A program made the translations under genes and the position numbers. The notes below the pieces were generated by a model. The model saw only the letters and a program-made list of their open reading frames with translations. It had not been told where the DNA came from and did not search any database. Positions 6,615 to 33,602 of a DNA stretch of 38,567 nt are shown one piece after another; positions within the stretch are counted from its first letter, which is position 1, and the number at the start of each line of letters is the position of its first letter. This stretch comes from a virus (lineage: Duplodnaviria; Heunggongvirae; Uroviricota; Caudoviricetes). Where the stretch lies: positions 1 through 38,567 of the IMG/VR virus record IMGVR_UViG_2531839486_000019. One strand, written 5' to 3'.

Positions 6615-6656
6615 AGACAACCCATAAATAAGAACAGATATTACCTTTCAGGTGAT
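6615..6656 (+). promoter_or_regulatory. candidate promoter plus operator-like dyad upstream of the 85-aa plus-strand gene
   Basis: -35-like TAGACA (6615-6620), 17-bp spacer, -10-like GATATT (6638-6643) overlapping dyad TTACC-TTTCA-GGTGA (6642-6656). Confidence 0.4.
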
Positions 6657-21302: not shown

Positions 21303-21595
21303 TCCTGTTCACTGGCCTCTTTGGCCATCTTCAAATACTGTTCAGGGCAATGCGCCATAACGCGCTGAAACAGTTCCAGCGCCAGATTGCGTTGCCCCTC
21401 ATTAAATGCCATTGCCATAGCGTCCATCGGTGATATAGCGGAAAACACACGGCCTTTCTCCAGCACCGACCAGACAACGCGACGCCCCTGTTCACTGCTC
21501 ATGACAAAGCGAATGTCATCAATTTCACGCTGCGCCATGTCACGTTGCTTACGGGCGTTTTCTTCTTTCAGTTGATCGTCTTCGTAATCTGTCAT
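21299..21595 (-). CDS. hypothetical 98-aa protein between portal and scaffold genes
   Basis: ATG overlaps portal stop and its own stop overlaps the scaffold start. Confidence 0.5.
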   Translation of the reverse strand: MTDYEDDQLKEENARKQRDMAQREIDDIRFVMSSEQGRRVVWSVLEKGRVFSAISPMDAMAMAFNEGQRNLALELFQRVMAHCPEQYLKMAKEASEQE

Positions 21596-23271
21596 TGTGA
21601 TTGCCCACCCTGACCACTAACTGCATTCGCCATAGCTGACAAAACACTCGGATCCGAAGTTTTAGCTTCGCTTAGCGTCTTGGCACCCTGTGCCGCCGCC
21701 ATCCCCATCGCCATCATTTGTTGCTGCTGTTGTTGCTGTGCCCGTTGCTGGCGAGCCTGCTCAACCTGTTCCTGCGGAACAATGACGGTTGGAGACACTC
21801 CGGACATATCAGCGAATGCATCGATCGCCTGATCAACGTTGAGTTTGTCGAGAGCTTCTGGTTTCGCTTGCGCAAGTTGACCAATGAAGTTGACCGTAGA
21901 CGCCAGACTGGACAGGCCGATAGACTTCTGCGCCTGAGCCATGACGGAAATGTATTCGACCTTCAGGGGCATACCTTCCATCGCGTCAGGCGGTGGCGGC
22001 AGCATGTTTTTACGCACCATCATCGAGAAAGCGCGGTCAATGAGAGGATTAAGACATTCGTCGTTCAGACGCTCCAGAACCGGACCCAACATCAGAAGTT
22101 TTTCTTCTTTCATTTCGATCACCGCTTCAACAGGCATCGAGCGGGTATTGATGTTCTGCAACATCATGAACAGATCGACAAAGTAGGCGCTGTTAATGAT
22201 TTGACGAGTGTCCTGAATGTCTGCTACCAGATCTGCTGTACTGGGGTTAACCAGATAAGCAGGCCTGAAACCATCCTGACCAGTAATCTGATCGATATAC
22301 GTGATGTCGCCAGGAAGAAGGGAGGCGCGCTGATTCTTGAGGGAAGTCGGAGCAACCATCGGCGGATTGGTGGCTTTATCAATCAACTGCGACTTGCGCT
22401 TCTGGAGAAGCTGCAATGCCTTAACAGGTCCAAGCGCCAGCATACCCGGGCATGATGATCCATAAACATCTTCGCCGTTAACTTCCCAGCGCGGAGCCAT
22501 AATTGGAAACTCATCGAATCCGGACTCACGCAACAACTTGTCGTTATCGCCACCAACCTCGTAATAAACCGATTTGAATGGCTTGTTCTTGCTATCCAGC
22601 TTCGATGTATCGCGGTCAATGTTCGGGTAAACCGAATGCATCACTTCAATCCACTTCTCGTAGGTGCCGCTTTCCCACATGCTTTTTACGGATTCGCTGA
22701 CGTTATTTAGTCCGAATTCCTGAACAAGCTGACGAACAGTCATAGAGAACTTGCGAAAACAGGTGTCCACACTGCCACGAGGTGAGTTAGCCAGGTAGTA
22801 ACTTCCTATCGGGAATGGCATTGTACGAATGATGTCCTCGTCATCCTCCAGCACCGCCATTGCACCGGTGCTGTATGTGCCGAGGCTTCCGTATAACTGC
22901 GGCAGCGACTGATAGAGATTCGACTTATTGAACATATCGTTCATGCGGTTCTGCACTGCCTCAAGCCACAACTTAACAGGGCCATAATCCATCATTTCAG
23001 GATCTGGCGTAGCCAGGCGAAACCACGGACGCGCGGGGCTTGTGATGCCTGACATCATGCCGCTGGCGAGAGTGCGCGCCGCCATAGTCCCGGTCGAATC
23101 AATAATGCGTGTATTGCGTCGATCGTTACGGTTGACCTCAGAAGTCAGAAAGCGGGAACCACGCGGGTTGATGTAATCACTCAACTCGCGCCAGTGCGGC
23201 TCGAACGACTGACGCTCGCTTTCAAGTTGTGCGAACTGTTTGTTCAATCGCTCTTTAGTTGTTTCCGCCAT
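21592..23271 (-). CDS. portal (head-to-tail connector) protein, podovirus type
   Basis: 559 aa; ATG 23269-23271 with RBS GGAG 8 nt upstream; poly-Gln/Ala C-terminal tail; sits after the terminase genes. Confidence 0.85.
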   Translation of the reverse strand: MAETTKERLNKQFAQLESERQSFEPHWRELSDYINPRGSRFLTSEVNRNDRRNTRIIDSTGTMAARTLASGMMSGITSPARPWFRLATPDPEMMDYGPVKLWLEAVQNRMNDMFNKSNLYQSLPQLYGSLGTYSTGAMAVLEDDEDIIRTMPFPIGSYYLANSPRGSVDTCFRKFSMTVRQLVQEFGLNNVSESVKSMWESGTYEKWIEVMHSVYPNIDRDTSKLDSKNKPFKSVYYEVGGDNDKLLRESGFDEFPIMAPRWEVNGEDVYGSSCPGMLALGPVKALQLLQKRKSQLIDKATNPPMVAPTSLKNQRASLLPGDITYIDQITGQDGFRPAYLVNPSTADLVADIQDTRQIINSAYFVDLFMMLQNINTRSMPVEAVIEMKEEKLLMLGPVLERLNDECLNPLIDRAFSMMVRKNMLPPPPDAMEGMPLKVEYISVMAQAQKSIGLSSLASTVNFIGQLAQAKPEALDKLNVDQAIDAFADMSGVSPTVIVPQEQVEQARQQRAQQQQQQQMMAMGMAAAQGAKTLSEAKTSDPSVLSAMANAVSGQGGQSQ

Positions 23272-23285
23272 TTCAATGACTCCGG

Positions 23286-23492
23286 TTACTGACCAAGCAG
23301 CGTTTTACCGCTGGTATTAGCGGTTGATGTGTCGCCCTGAGAACCGGTAAGCAGCGTAGAACTACGACCAGCAGCAGCGCGACGGCGACGAGTTTCTTCG
23401 TCGCGGGCATCAACAACGGCGGCATCCTGCTCCTGTGGTGCTGCCTGAACTTCTGGTGTTGCAGGCACTGACGGTGAGCTACCCATGCACAT
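23286..23492 (-). CDS. hypothetical small acidic low-complexity protein upstream of portal
   Basis: ATG 23490-23492 with GGAG 8 nt upstream; low-complexity sequence, so weakly supported. Confidence 0.3.
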   Translation of the reverse strand: MCMGSSPSVPATPEVQAAPQEQDAAVVDARDEETRRRRAAAGRSSTLLTGSQGDTSTANTSGKTLLGQ

Positions 23493-23560: not shown

Positions 23561-23597
23561 TTGACATTTAACGCACAAATTATTACCTTTCAGGTAA
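23561..23597 (+). promoter_or_regulatory. candidate plus-strand promoter with operator-like dyad driving the tRNA operon
   Basis: perfect -35 TTGACA (23561-23566); dyad TTACC-TTTCA-GGTAA (23583-23597) over the -10 region; exact -10 hexamer ambiguous. Confidence 0.4.
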
Positions 23598-23919
23598 GCA
23601 AAGGGTTCATTCCGGTTATTAACCTGACTGGCTTGTCGTTAAATTGAACAGGTGGAGTGAGCTTTTATTTTGAGCAGTACGGCGTATGGCACATGCGCCG
23701 ATAGCGGTCTGGATACGTTTAAGGGGCACCCTCCCTTGCTCGGGCAAACGAACCAGGTAGCCGGAATGTGCAAGTCGAGCGGTTTTATTCCGCGCACGGG
23801 GATTCACCATCCCGGCGATTCGGTGTGACACCTCGGAAGAGACGAGGGTACAACGATGAGAGCATTTATGGAGCCGCGACAAAGTGTGGCGCCTTAACAG
23901 GCTAAGTGCTCTCAGCGTT

Positions 23920-23996
23920 GTGGCATTAGCTCAGTTGGACAGAGCAACCGCCTTCTAAGCGGTTGGTCGCAGGTTCGAATCCTGCATGCCACGCCA
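23920..23996 (+). tRNA. tRNA-Arg (anticodon UCU), phage-encoded
   Basis: 77-nt cloverleaf: acceptor GTGGCAT/ATGCCAC, D-stem GCTC/GAGC, anticodon stem ACCGC/GCGGT with loop CTTCTAA, T-arm GCAGG-TTCGAAT-CCTGC, discriminator G, encoded CCA. Confidence 0.85.
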
Positions 23997-24039
23997 GAAT
24001 CACGCCTAAGGACCGTGATGCCAGAAGTTCCAGGTGCTT

Positions 24040-24081
24040 GGCGGTGATGGTTTCCCTTGAAGGACTATCACCGCCCTTTTT
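24040..24081 (+). terminator. rho-independent terminator downstream of the tRNA
   Basis: stem ggcggtgat (24040-24048) / atcaccgcc (24067-24075) followed by CTTTTT. Confidence 0.5.
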
Positions 24082-24159
24082 ACAGCAGGACGCCATTGCG
24101 ATGACTTCATGCTGTAAACCCGTACAGCCACGGAAGGCATAACTCATTGCTTCCAGTTC

Positions 24160-24183
24160 GCCCGGTTCGCCGGGCATTTTTTT
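24160..24183 (+). terminator. second terminator-like hairpin ending 12 nt before the 123-aa gene start (attenuator candidate)
   Basis: stem gcccgg / ccgggc with ttcg loop, then A + TTTTTTT (24177-24183); RBS AAGGTGAGA follows directly. Confidence 0.45.
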
Positions 24184-24194
24184 AAGGTGAGATT

Positions 24195-24566
24195 ATGAAC
24201 GACCAGCAAATCGAAAAAGAAATCGTTGAGAAAGGAAAAACGGCACCGCGCGTTACGCCAGACCATATCGAAGGCATTATTGCTCAGGAGGCATATTTCA
24301 CAGCAGAAGATGGTGCCTTTGGCAAAGCCATAAAAGCGAAACATACTGGCGGAGAGGTAAACTACCAGCCGCACGAATCACTTTCTCTGCTGACGTTCTG
24401 CGTCCTGGTACTGCGCAACGGCTTCACCGTCACCGGAGAGAGTGCCTGTGCAAGTCCGGAAAATTTTGATGCAGAAATTGGTCGGAAGATTGCCCGGCAG
24501 AATGCTGTAAACAAAATCTGGATGCTCGAAGGTTACTTGCTGAAGCAGAAGCTAAGCGAGCAATAA
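24195..24566 (+). CDS. hypothetical 123-aa protein (cargo gene co-oriented with the tRNA)
   Basis: ATG 24195 with RBS AAGGTGAG 5 nt upstream; TAA at 24564-24566; terminator downstream. Confidence 0.6.
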   Translation: MNDQQIEKEIVEKGKTAPRVTPDHIEGIIAQEAYFTAEDGAFGKAIKAKHTGGEVNYQPHESLSLLTFCVLVLRNGFTVTGESACASPENFDAEIGRKIARQNAVNKIWMLEGYLLKQKLSEQ

Positions 24567-24586: not shown

Positions 24587-24614
24587 AGCCAGCCGATGAG
24601 CTGGCTTTGTTTTA
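24587..24614 (+). terminator. rho-independent terminator of the plus-strand cargo gene
   Basis: stem agccagc / gctggct, loop cgatga, then TTGTTTTA. Confidence 0.6.
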
Positions 24615-24656: not shown

Positions 24657-26132
24657 TTAAGCATACGGGTCATAATCTGTGATGGCCTTGCCTTGCTGGT
24701 TCTGCTGCCCAGGAATTCGCAGACGCTTCGACACAGGGAAAGCAAACGTCAGCAGTAGCGCATCGCCTTTACCCGGCGAACGCCCAAGTCGCTCTTTGAT
24801 ATCTTCCTTCGGTTCGATAACGATTTTACCGTCCACTCGAACTTTATACTCTGCCGCCGACAGGTCGTCCGCTGTTTCCTGGTCATCCAGCATCCCGCCG
24901 AGCCTCAGCCATGTCTTACATGAGTTGAACATCTCCCCACGCTTGTTAAGCATCTGCGGGTCAGTGGACGCACCGCCGAACGGAACAAGTTGCCATGTAC
25001 GTCCCCAGCCATCACCGATTGACTTCAGACCAGTTCCGTAACCGAAGTCGATGAACACTGCGTCAGCCTGGTACTGGTCTTCAAAGTCAGCGATACGCTT
25101 CGCCATTATCAGATCGTCAGTGGTCTTGTTGCCAGTCCATAGCACCTTACTATGCAACCCCTGCCGCAGGTATATCACCGCGTCATCAACGCCTGAATAT
25201 GCCGGGTCAACACCGATTATCACCGGAGCATGTGCCACCTGCGCAGCGGTTACCACCCGTTTCATTGCCTCATCAGTAAGACCGGTAGGGATAAACTGCA
25301 ATTCAGATGCATCAGGGAATATGCCGCGCACACGGATTTTAACGAAGTCGCTGTCTTCCCCGTAGTCATCAACCCATTTCTGCAACTGCTGTTTGTTAGT
25401 ACCTTCCACCGTCCGGCTGTCTATCTGCGCACACTTCCAGCGGTGCTTGTATTTGCGGAAGCATTCACGGAATCGCCCGGTATTACGCGTCGGGTTTCCG
25501 AACGCCACCCAAATAATCTCAGTGTCTTCGTCCGTAAGCGCACCCTCAGCAACTTCCCACACCAGATCCGCAATGTTCGACGCTTCATCAAACACCACGA
25601 TGATGCGTTTGCGCTCGTTGTGTAGTCCCGCGAACGCCTCAGTGTTGTGCTCAGACCAGGGGATTGCGTCAGCTCGCCACCGCTTGTCGTGCCCAGGATC
25701 ATTGCTGTACATCGCGGTAGCGGTACAGGTAAACCAGTCTTTCGTGATAGCAAGGTTCGACCACTTGATAATTTCCGGCCAGGTCTTCGTTCGTAGCTGG
25801 TTGTCGGTGTTGGCGGTCACCACGACCTTACAATCCTCGCAAGTGGACATGCCCCAGTTGATCAGCATTGAGATGAATGCGGATTTACCAATACCGTGAC
25901 CAGAAGCGCGTGCCAGCATAAGCGGCTGATAACGCGTCTCTGGATTCTGCAGGTGATCACGTATCTCTCGGAACGCATCGGCCTGCCACTGACGTGGGCC
26001 GGTAGCATGTGCCAGTTCAGTCCCCTCTTCCCCCCACGGGAACGCATAGAGGGCATAGCCAAGCGGATCGTGAGTGAACCCTGCAATATCCTCGATTAAC
26101 TGCTCTTCAGGAGATAACGCTGTATCTGTCAC
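24657..26132 (-). CDS. terminase large subunit
   Basis: 491 aa with N-terminal ATPase (Walker A-like GHGIGKS) and C-terminal nuclease-like region; GTG start overlaps small-subunit stop (GTGA). Confidence 0.9.
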   Translation of the reverse strand: MTDTALSPEEQLIEDIAGFTHDPLGYALYAFPWGEEGTELAHATGPRQWQADAFREIRDHLQNPETRYQPLMLARASGHGIGKSAFISMLINWGMSTCEDCKVVVTANTDNQLRTKTWPEIIKWSNLAITKDWFTCTATAMYSNDPGHDKRWRADAIPWSEHNTEAFAGLHNERKRIIVVFDEASNIADLVWEVAEGALTDEDTEIIWVAFGNPTRNTGRFRECFRKYKHRWKCAQIDSRTVEGTNKQQLQKWVDDYGEDSDFVKIRVRGIFPDASELQFIPTGLTDEAMKRVVTAAQVAHAPVIIGVDPAYSGVDDAVIYLRQGLHSKVLWTGNKTTDDLIMAKRIADFEDQYQADAVFIDFGYGTGLKSIGDGWGRTWQLVPFGGASTDPQMLNKRGEMFNSCKTWLRLGGMLDDQETADDLSAAEYKVRVDGKIVIEPKEDIKERLGRSPGKGDALLLTFAFPVSKRLRIPGQQNQQGKAITDYDPYA

Positions 26133-32882: not shown

Positions 32883-33467
32883 ATGAAAAGTATCCAGGAC
32901 GTCCGCAGGCAAAATCTCAACGACTTGATCGACCGTGAATTCAATGGTGTTCAGACGCGGATGGCAGAAAAACTTGGAACTCAGGCAAATCTGGTAAACC
33001 GCTGGGCTCTTGGCAAGAAGGTTATCGGCGACCAGGTTGCGCGAAAAATTGAAGCTGCCGCCAATAAACCCCGTAACTGGCTTGATATCGATCGCTCGCT
33101 TTCTCAGGAAGGTTTTCAGCCTGTCGGCCCAAGCGACATTGGTCAGCTGGCGGCTCACAACCTGGAACGCTGGATGAGCGAAAGCCGCGACCTTTCAACA
33201 CAGGGAAAACTTCACCGCGCATCCGGCGTCGCCCAGGTGACAATCAGCCGCCTGTTAAACAATGAGGTCAGCGTTTCCATTTCCACCCTGGAGAATGTTG
33301 CATCTGCATTCGGGCGTCACGGATATGAACTACTGATTCACCCGCACGACCCTGCAACTATCAACTATGACCGCTCGCGCTACGCATTATTACCTGAAAC
33401 CGAGAAAGCAAAGATCGAAAGTTACATTGAATTTGTCATCAACCAGAACGAAAAAAACAAACAATAA
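32883..33467 (+). CDS. CI-like repressor candidate with HTH domain(s) and no recognisable LexA/S24 cleavage domain
   Basis: XRE-type HTH (GVQTRMAEKLGTQANLVNRWALGKK) and a second HTH-like stretch; no Ala-Gly/Ser-Lys peptidase motifs seen; divergent from Cro-like gene. Confidence 0.55.
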   Translation: MKSIQDVRRQNLNDLIDREFNGVQTRMAEKLGTQANLVNRWALGKKVIGDQVARKIEAAANKPRNWLDIDRSLSQEGFQPVGPSDIGQLAAHNLERWMSESRDLSTQGKLHRASGVAQVTISRLLNNEVSVSISTLENVASAFGRHGYELLIHPHDPATINYDRSRYALLPETEKAKIESYIEFVINQNEKNKQ

Positions 33468-33488: not shown

Positions 33489-33512
33489 AGCCGCCAAATG
33501 GCGGCTTTTTTT
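33489..33512 (+). terminator. rho-independent terminator after the CI-like gene
   Basis: stem agccgcc / ggcggct with aaat loop, then TTTTTT. Confidence 0.65.
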
Positions 33513-33525
33513 ATTGTCTTTTTAA

Positions 33526-33602
33526 TTACCTTACAGGTAATTTTTTTAACTCATATCTATTGACATCAAACCAAATACGCATAATTATTACCTCAACGGT
33601 AA
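33526..33602 (+). promoter_or_regulatory. pL-like early-left promoter with two operator-like dyads
   Basis: dyad TTACC-TTACA-GGTAA (33526-33540); -35 TTGACA (33560-33565); 17-bp spacer; -10 AATTAT (33583-33588) overlapped by dyad TTACC-TCAAC-GGTAA (33588-33602). Confidence 0.5.

Follow-up and report, generated by a model that had tools for sequence, protein, structure and literature searches.

The stretch of DNA considered here, the window, is the whole of IMG/VR virus record IMGVR_UViG_2531839486_000019 (38,567 nucleotides). It comes from an epsilon15/phiV10-like temperate podophage; by BLAST, 721 bases around the element discussed below are 98-99.6% identical to phiV10, TL-2011b and related phages. 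In it, a plus-strand cassette is inserted between minus-strand late genes, with the portal gene on one side and the large terminase gene on the other. The cassette runs, in order, from a promoter through a leader of about 320 nt (23598-23919), a tRNA-Arg gene, a hairpin, two intrinsic terminators (T1 and T2) and a gene of the gp49 family to a third terminator. The leader is the subject of this analysis. It holds a core RNA with two pseudoknots, a member of a new RNA family that is conserved among temperate phages of enterobacteria. A preliminary description of the window, made from its letters alone, had called the leader non-coding and had suggested that it might be a structured leader, a small RNA co-transcribed with the tRNA, or a degraded second tRNA.

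The core folds into five helices, P1 to P5, and two pseudoknots, PK1 and PK2:

23677-23851, plus strand: conserved core RNA, about 175 nt
23680-23684 with 23696-23700, plus strand: P1, a hairpin
23689-23694 with 23766-23771, plus strand: PK1, predicted pairing of the loop GCACAU (in P1) with AUGUGC 70 nt downstream
23704-23712 with 23753-23761, plus strand: P2, long, with a variable tip
23779-23782 with 23790-23793, plus strand: P3, variable
23799-23802 with 23810-23813, plus strand: P4, a covarying hairpin
23805-23808 with 23822-23825, plus strand: PK2, pairing of the loop CACC (in P4) with GGUG, with C:G to A:U changes
23831-23835 with 23843-23847, plus strand: P5, a hairpin with the conserved loop GAAGAGA

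The evidence for this fold comes from an alignment (A4) of 48 sequences to a covariance model, R1. Here, 96.5% of the cells are standard pairs, and 14 of the 31 pairs are compensatory, having changed on both sides. None of 500 column shuffles of A4 attains any of five measures, and sliding the partners by 1-3 columns reduces pairing to 28-45%. A structure-blind MAFFT alignment of 26 representatives shows a matching picture of covariation. Model R1 scores 145.5 bits in the window (E about 1e-46) and 110-164 bits across all 48 matches, which come from 47 sources. Because G:U pairs occur in P1, P2 and P4, the RNA is assigned to the plus strand. Folding energies were a check that the preliminary description had proposed; the whole leader folds better on the plus strand than its shuffles (z = -3.04, with 0 of 100 shuffles doing as well), and for the core plus the long stem that follows it (P6) z is -2.92 on the plus strand versus -1.73 on the minus strand.

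The individual elements carry this signal to different degrees. The hairpin that had been noticed near 23800 is real, being P4 (GGGA at 23799-23802 with UCCC at 23810-23813), one of the best covarying helices. In PK2, the change from C:G to A:U arose in at least two lineages, once in the mEp460 type and once in a Kosakonia locus (L134) as compared with its near-identical sisters (L144 and L138). The PK1 pairing is invariant across the present sample and gives no covariation signal. A divergent core in Klebsiella phage Kp4865-1 (L165, 501-654) has AACAACC where GGUAGCC is usually invariant, a P2 rebuilt with compensatory pairs (CUGAGAG/CUCUCAG) and an extra P5-like hairpin ahead of P6; it should be useful for defining the essential parts.

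In A4, 33 columns never vary and another 43 reach at least 90% conservation, which gives about 76 highly conserved positions; most of them fall in loops and junctions. Invariant loops on covarying stems are, of course, the usual signature of an aptamer, and the compact fold with its two pseudoknots fits that signature. The core could on these grounds be a riboswitch-like sensor that binds a metabolite, an ion, a tRNA or a host protein and tunes the transcription or translation of early genes. It always stands in a 5' leader or an intergenic operon position, as such a sensor would. However, no expression platform overlaps the core: the first terminator comes 190-250 nt further on, with P6 and the tRNA between. 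The core has no Rfam riboswitch match, and the genes downstream differ in function from one context to the next (a helicase, recombination genes, gp49, a tRNA), so that no common ligand logic connects them. A sensor of this kind is thus distinctly unlikely.

The size, the pseudoknots and the invariant block of nucleotides are also compatible with the catalytic core of a self-cleaving or processing ribozyme, which would define RNA ends in polycistronic early transcripts beside tRNAs; the phage context and the tRNA neighbours would suit it. Yet there is no similarity to the Rfam ribozyme families, no conserved cleavage-site context was recognised, and most copies lie away from tRNAs. A ribozyme is very improbable.

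The leader is non-coding as well as strongly structured; conservation, covariation and the coding test agree in this. Among the 26 representatives, no open reading frame (ORF) is conserved on either strand and no frame stays open. The relative reading phase among homologues flips 1-6 times, usually at least 3, within the 175-nt core, indels between homologues break the frame, and every frame meets stops in some homologues. The two minus-strand ORFs over the region (23619-23882 and 23926-24177) were rightly suspected of being spurious, since the frame of the first is not conserved and neither has a Pfam match. PHROG 4647 matches the second of them (E = 2.8e-54); its members are ORFs called on the strand opposite tRNA-Arg and T1, and this "protein family" is almost certainly an annotation artefact propagated via phage records. 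The 13-codon peptide that had been picked out as the best plus-strand ORF does exist, although it starts at 23856 and not at 23855. As a leader peptide (23856-23897) it was rejected, its AUG and length not being conserved in homologues; it lies inside the P6 stem.

The idea of a degraded second tRNA also falls. Neither ARAGORN nor the Rfam tRNA model finds a tRNA in 23598-23919, the only tRNA being that at 23920-23996, and instead of a cloverleaf the RNA forms a double pseudoknot with five helices. When the whole window was searched with Rfam 15, only the tRNA reached the gathering threshold; 23598-23919 gave nothing even at E <= 10, and the lambdoid copy gave only chance-level matches at E <= 10. 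The absence of an Rfam match does not refute the structured reading, because conserved structure has been demonstrated directly.

One might still hold that nothing special lies here, only an ordinary tRNA leader, a decayed tRNA or a minus-strand gene at 23619-23882. In public records the core is either unannotated or annotated by mistake as hypothetical proteins (mEp460_037, Tyrion gp54), and a weak PHROG match (E = 5e-4) could be read in the same sense. Against this, unrelated phages that have no tRNA share the 175 nt at 70-83% identity, the pairs change in compensation, frame-breaking indels separate homologues, no frame is consistently open, and neither tRNA models nor Pfam give a match. 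So plain an explanation is hardly credible; the coding test and the covariation rule it out.

The family has no entry in Rfam 15, and no description of it was found in the literature searched. It occurs in three unrelated phage groups: epsilon15/phiV10-like phages, lambdoid and Shiga toxin (Stx) phages, and P1/P7. In BLAST searches, window positions 23679-23923 recur with about 83% identity in mEp460, cdtI, Stx2a_1447, Stx2c phages and O55:H7 CB9615, and the first 165 nt or so of that interval recur with about 81% identity in P1, P7, D6, SJ46 and P1-like plasmids. The core is also present in SPN1S. Conservation in related prophages, which the preliminary description had proposed as a check, is found and reaches beyond them, into lambdoid and Stx phages and P1. 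The scope is therefore wider than was first described; judged by its placements, this is a mobile RNA module and not a local tRNA leader.

Two further searches extend this distribution. An invariant 19-mer, GGTAGCCGGAATGTGCAAG, is found in at least 119 IMG/VR contigs. A pattern scan that used a different anchor, with one genome per species, returned 29 loci: 23 true ones (122-163 bits), all from Enterobacterales except one misbinned contig of a metagenome-assembled genome (MAG), and 6 chance matches in other phyla. The hosts belong to Escherichia, Citrobacter, Klebsiella, Enterobacter, Kosakonia, Phytobacter, Kluyvera, Pseudescherichia, Superficieibacter, Pseudocitrobacter and Ca. Erwinia dacicola. 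A 1.75-kb contig binned as a Bacillota MAG (L154, 1156-1313) carries a full-scoring copy of 158.9 bits and is probably misbinned or a contaminant. The 721-nt query, which includes the tRNA gene and is not the core alone, has matches in 1083 of 5426 complete E. coli genomes, and the whole phiV10-type stretch is present in 502 of the 5426. No copy of the core was found in the K-12 prophage e14.

Around the core, the window contains the following features:

21592-23271, minus strand: portal gene, a late gene
23286-23492, minus strand: small gene, a late gene
23561-23597, plus strand: early promoter of the sigma-70 type (-35 TTGACA at 23561-23566, 17-nt spacer, -10 TACCTT at 23584-23589)
23583-23597, overlapping -10/+1: perfect repressor operator TTACCTTTCAGGTAA, of the motif TTACCT-N3-AGGTAA
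23598-23668, plus strand: P0, a 5' hairpin unit, a degenerate copy of a repeated P6-like unit
23851-23920, plus strand: P6, a long stem, CAACG-AU-GAGAGCA ... UGCUCUC-AG-CGUUG, with a variable tip (from the minimum free energy fold and covariation)
23920-23996, plus strand: tRNA-Arg, anticodon UCU (ARAGORN; Rfam tRNA, 73.3 bits)
23999-24019, plus strand: P8, a hairpin, AUCACG-CCUAAGGAC-CGUGAU, conserved after the tRNA or tRNA-like slot
24040-24085, plus strand: T1, an intrinsic terminator, GGCGGUGAUGG...CUAUCACCGCC then CUUUUUACAG, dG -22 kcal/mol
24160-24185, plus strand: T2, a canonical terminator, GCCCGGUUCGCCGGGC plus AUUUUUUU, hairpin at 24160-24175
24195-24566, plus strand: cargo gene, N4 Gp49 / Sf6 gene 66 (gp66) family (Pfam PF13876, E = 8.6e-35)
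24587-24606, plus strand: third terminator, after the cargo gene (terminator scan)
24657-26132, minus strand: large terminase gene, a late gene
32883-33467: helix-turn-helix (HTH) repressor gene, surrounded by an operator cluster

The units that flank the core are themselves structured. In relatives, the P6-like unit reads ACAAC-NN-AAAGCGCAC...GUCGUUAAAU...GUGCGCUUCC-NN-GUGUG. It precedes the core in epsilon15-like phages, and is found 3' of the core as well in three loci (L011, L039, L073). P0 is present as a hairpin in the minimum free energy fold of the leader, and an alignment of epsilon15-like leaders shows a compensatory change in it, from GCGCAC/GUGCGC to GCGCGC/GCGCGC in Tyrion. The arms of P6 covary through GAGAGCA/UGCUCUC, AAGAGCA/UGCUCUU, AAGAGCG/CGCUCUU, GAGCGCA/UGCGCUC and CAAUC/GAUUG. 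As the last pair of P6 includes tRNA position +1, cleavage by RNase P at 23919/23920 would free the leader RNA.

Beyond P6 comes the place of the tRNA. In copies without a tRNA (mEp460, Tyrion and others), this slot holds a tRNA-like domain built on a 4-way junction, closed by GUUGUGGUG...CACCACAAC, and the GCGUU|GUGG junction is conserved. In mEp460 (L001, 2739-2873), a domain of about 130 nt stands exactly in the place of tRNA-Arg and folds as a four-way junction; a "D-like" hairpin, GCGCA-GGCUGA-UGCGC, forms part of it, and a "T-like" hairpin adjoins its 3' strand. The tRNA models do not recognise this mEp460 domain. The P8 hairpin covaries in epsilon15-like and lambdoid copies (AUCGCG/CGCGAU in L022, AUCACG/CGUGGU in L013).

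In T1, a hairpin at 24040-24075 is followed by CUUUUUAC. Its pattern GGCGGU..ACCGCC-CUUUUUACA is conserved in L001, L004, L007, L022, L081, L088 and L094, and T1 is taken on this sequence pattern to be homologous between the epsilon15-like and lambdoid contexts, and part of the module. The U-tract of T2 ends 4 nt 5' of the Shine-Dalgarno (SD) sequence of the gp49-family gene, which leaves no room for a promoter before the ATG at 24195. As the sequence stands, the cargo gene would be reachable for transcription only by read-through of T1 and T2. What is carried there varies among relatives, with DUF2829 in L004 and other genes in L059 and L081. Strong terminators are a regular feature of the family outside P1: between +300 and +500 from the core start, 74 canonical ones were found in 134 loci, against about 8 expected (background, 0.17 per 600 nt). 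The GGCGGUA of T1 resembles the first 7 nt of ops, the element of the ops/RfaH system; the remainder is without a match.

The loops of P2 and T1 show a likeness of their own. A shorter motif, UCCYUUG, is conserved in both across the RNA family, and in Salmonella phages the two apical loops have a 13-mer, UUCCCUUGAUGCU, in common (epsilon15, L006 1858-1880; SPNIS2, L164 480-515 and 660-690; SPN1S, L005). Epsilon15 has suffered a deletion of the 3' part of the core, the tRNA and the 5' arm of T1, and SPNIS2 a rearrangement; the junctions of both lie in the 13-mer repeat.

The promoter at 23561-23597 was identified by reading the sequence, and is absent from the output of a consensus scanner. Its operator belongs to a motif, TTACCT-N3-AGGTAA, that occurs at 14 sites in the whole window where 0.84 would be expected. 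The sites span 3157-33602 (30420, 30482, 32428, 32813, 33526 and 33588 are among them) and cluster in the immunity region. This palindrome we take to be the phage's operator, and the annotation of epsilon15 places a repressor site at the homologous spot. Since a perfect operator covers the -10/+1 region, the cassette would be switched on by derepression, with the transcript probably starting near 23596-23598.

The same architecture is found at the main early promoter (33561-33602), which is located after the repressor gene and its terminator. The interval 33489-33602, where a terminator 3' of the repressor gene is followed by an operator-flanked promoter (TTGACA at 33561) without an RNA core, appears to be this phage's equivalent of cI-timm-OL/pL. 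One operator pair, 30420/30482, lies outside the immunity region, and the single sites at 6641 and 3157 may mark further repressor-controlled promoters.

Lambdoid copies are placed in a similar way. Two lambdoid loci (L001 and L011) were read base by base, and two more (L013 and L024) for the promoter only. In L001 and L011, the order is the CI repressor gene, its terminator, operator-like repeats with a promoter, 10-50 nt, and then the core. In mEp460, specifically, cI and an intrinsic terminator are followed by two TTGC-N7-GCAA repeats over a TTGCAT-17-TATCTT promoter, about 37 nt, and the core; downstream come P6, the tRNA-like domain, T1, a second long hairpin and the early-left genes. In the loci read, this position is the place of nutL in lambda and of putL in HK022. 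The mEp460 operator motif is found only at OR and OL and nowhere after T1, so the pL upstream of the core is the sole repressor-controlled leftward promoter. A Q gene is present in mEp460; an N gene is not annotated.

More widely, an HTH + S24 CI-type ORF ends within 650 nt upstream of the core, on the same strand, in 63 of 134 non-redundant loci. These 63 form two large ORF clusters (40 + 23), each typed by a Pfam search of a single representative; in a 64th locus (L131), the upstream ORF is repressor-like but has the HTH only. As far as the promoters and operators can be read, then, the core always lies in a transcription unit that would be switched on upon loss of the prophage repressor. 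Inverted morons also gather in the leader (L024, L085, L030); these are small genes for membrane-protein-like products that lie on the opposite strand and bring their own terminators. In the loci read, they are inserted downstream of the core, and none was seen between promoter and core. After such an insert, at about +800, L024 carries a second, slightly degenerate copy of the core.

P1 provides the third context. Here, C1 controls the ban operon, and the core is found within it, flanked by trnI and ban, at a distance of 2.3 kb from Pban and 13 nt downstream of tRNA-Ile. It stands alone, without P6 or T1, and runs straight into ban with no terminator after it; the only strong terminator found in the operon (dicF-like) lies upstream. 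The 286-bp gap before ban is unannotated. Between core and ban, a 14-codon ORF, MPIISDIQHAWVEC, with a good SD sequence (P1 70932-70979; L127 3729-3776) has a stop that overlaps the ban start (UAAUG), which suggests translational coupling of this upstream ORF to ban. Its SD sequence, AGGAGUGA, is by inspection complementary to the P4 loop and 3' arm of the core (UCAC-CA-UCCU), an arrangement that would speak for a riboswitch-like role.

The tRNAs beside the core bring in the strongest rival explanation, a stable trans-acting small RNA made of P0, core and P6 and released by tRNA-processing enzymes. Release would be by RNase P at 23919/23920 here; in P1, where tRNA-Ile stands 13 nt ahead of the core, it would be by 3' processing of that tRNA. 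The freed RNA might act early in the lytic cycle as a decoy, sponge or inhibitor of a host protein or RNA, and T1 would simply be the terminator of the RNA and tRNA. The core does abut tRNAs in two of three contexts (tRNA-Arg is downstream in 27 loci, tRNA-Ile upstream in 17), a tRNA-like 4-way junction fills the tRNA slot of tRNA-less copies with the GCGUU|GUGG junction retained, and most loci have a terminator after the core. Precedents exist: RNase P matures the c4 RNA of P1, and the tRNA cluster of T4 is a source of stable RNAs. Moreover, the P1 copy is the core alone, without P6 and T1, which means that the core works without a nearby terminator. Conversely, a tRNA is missing from the surrounding 1.5-2 kb in about 80 of 124 loci, the core is always upstream of, and on the same strand as, genes without their own promoter, and in P1 it passes into ban with no terminator to end such an RNA. 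No complementary target or partner was identified. A trans-acting RNA is, on balance, unlikely.

Tentatively, we favour a different reading, by analogy with the put RNAs of HK022. Put binds the zinc-binding domain of the RNA polymerase beta' subunit and suppresses pausing and termination without protein factors. The leader may be a cis-acting RNA that would likewise make RNA polymerase resistant to termination, as an analogue of put and not a homologue. This cis role is favoured because of the grammar of the loci (promoter, RNA, terminators, promoter-less genes) and because neither an N-like ORF nor a common phage protein accompanies it. No conserved ORF is present in the leader, no N-type protein is annotated in mEp460, and none is common to the partial P1 and mEp460 DNA compared. 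Between the window, the early half of mEp460 and 55 kb of P1 no protein is common; only the RNA is shared.

In detail, derepression would let RNA polymerase start at the operator-controlled promoter (about 23597) and transcribe P0, core and P6. Once folded, the core, either unaided or together with a host factor, would then act in cis on the transcribing polymerase to confer termination resistance. A fraction of polymerases would pass T1 (24040) and T2 (24160) and express the promoter-less cargo: the gp49-family gene in the window, the whole early-left operon in lambdoid and Stx phages, and ban-dbn in P1. RNase P, cutting at the base of P6, would release the tRNA-Arg that lies between P6 and T1 from this transcript. 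It is possible, if not quite probable, that RNA-only processive antiterminators arose a second time, independently of put, and that the core represents this other and much larger class. The placement of the morons lends circumstantial support, as does the epsilon15 deletion, which removes the 5' arm of T1 together with most of the core.

Several observations weigh against antitermination. Each phage genome examined, in a search with filters off, has one copy of the core, whereas HK022 has both putL and putR; no second copy that might be a putR analogue was found after pR. The P1 core is far from Pban and has no terminator after it, so that the role of a promoter-proximal antiterminator does not fit P1. 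Any plain tRNA or small-RNA gene would likewise have a terminator where T1 stands, about 45 nt beyond the tRNA gene. A constitutive antiterminator placed before two terminators needs a further rationale, such as insulation from read-through, or a requirement that transcription start at this promoter. Epsilon15, which lacks the core, keeps T2 and an intact cargo gene. Lastly, boxA is missing from nearly all copies, and a Nus/boxA-type mechanism is accordingly not indicated. The position of the core between portal and terminase genes in the window also raised the idea of a packaging RNA like the phi29 pRNA; this was set aside, as the lambdoid and P1 copies lie far from packaging genes.

If the antitermination reading is true, the early-left operon of these N-less phages, and cargo such as a rare-codon tRNA cassette, rely for their expression on a nascent RNA that reprograms E. 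coli RNA polymerase. To our knowledge, HK022 put is the only RNA-only phage antiterminator, and it is a key tool for the nascent-RNA control of RNA polymerase. A second RNA at the put position would make early-left expression in N-less lambdoid and Stx phages directly testable, together with the role of the 286-bp gap before ban in P1 and the wiring of tRNA-bearing morons into prophage derepression. The carriers are classical and medically relevant phages: P1/P7, the Stx2a and Stx2c converting phages, cdtI, phiV10 and SPN1S. Should the core prove to be a riboswitch or ribozyme instead, it would be a new class working at the lysis-lysogeny switch, and equally new. Even with a different mechanism, a well-supported new structured RNA family remains.

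Of the known systems, the nut site of lambda offers the same grammar of promoter, RNA site, terminator and genes, with the core at the nutL position and a P5 hairpin whose purine-rich loop, GAAGAGA, is superficially boxB-like. The conserved part of the core is, however, far larger than a nut site, and of 26 representatives just 2 have a boxA (CGCUCUUA / UGCUCUUUAACAA, up to 2 mismatches allowed); the window has none. Its absence from the other 24 excludes a Nus/boxA-dependent nut site as a general reading. In one lineage a perfect rrn-type boxA, UGCUCUUUAACAA, does lie beside the core (L085 at +197, L030 at +189); it adjoins an inverted-moron terminator and may be part of that insert and not of the RNA module.

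Other large RNAs resemble the core in part. The eps-associated RNA (EAR) of Bacillus, reported by Irnov and Winkler in 2010, is said to be a large structured cis RNA that promotes read-through of distal terminators. EAR belongs to a different phylum and a chromosomal exopolysaccharide operon, whereas the core lies in a phage early leader and has no Rfam match. Like the c4 RNA of P1/P7 and the species 1 and 2 RNAs of T4, the core is co-transcribed with and abuts phage tRNA genes, and an RNase P cut would define the 3' end of the leader RNA here; unlike c4, it has no Rfam c4 match and no evident antisense target, and most copies have no tRNA neighbour. With riboswitch aptamers it shares the compact pseudoknotted fold, the invariant junction and loop nucleotides, the covarying stems and the leader position, but not an overlapping expression platform, a common downstream function or an Rfam match.

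The closest analogue is HK022 put. In HK022 and in the lambdoid loci read, a leader stands directly 3' of a repressor-controlled pL in a phage without N, the terminators lie further on, and a structured nascent RNA is the only candidate effector. Homology was considered and rejected: the putL and putR sequences are unlike the core, and R1 has no match in HK022 between 22 and 32 kb. In put, two stems and a triplex fit within about 70 nt (PMC9378689). The core, by comparison, has about 175 nt, five helices and two pseudoknots, is present in one copy per genome instead of two, and is found in non-lambdoid phages (P1, epsilon15-like) as well.

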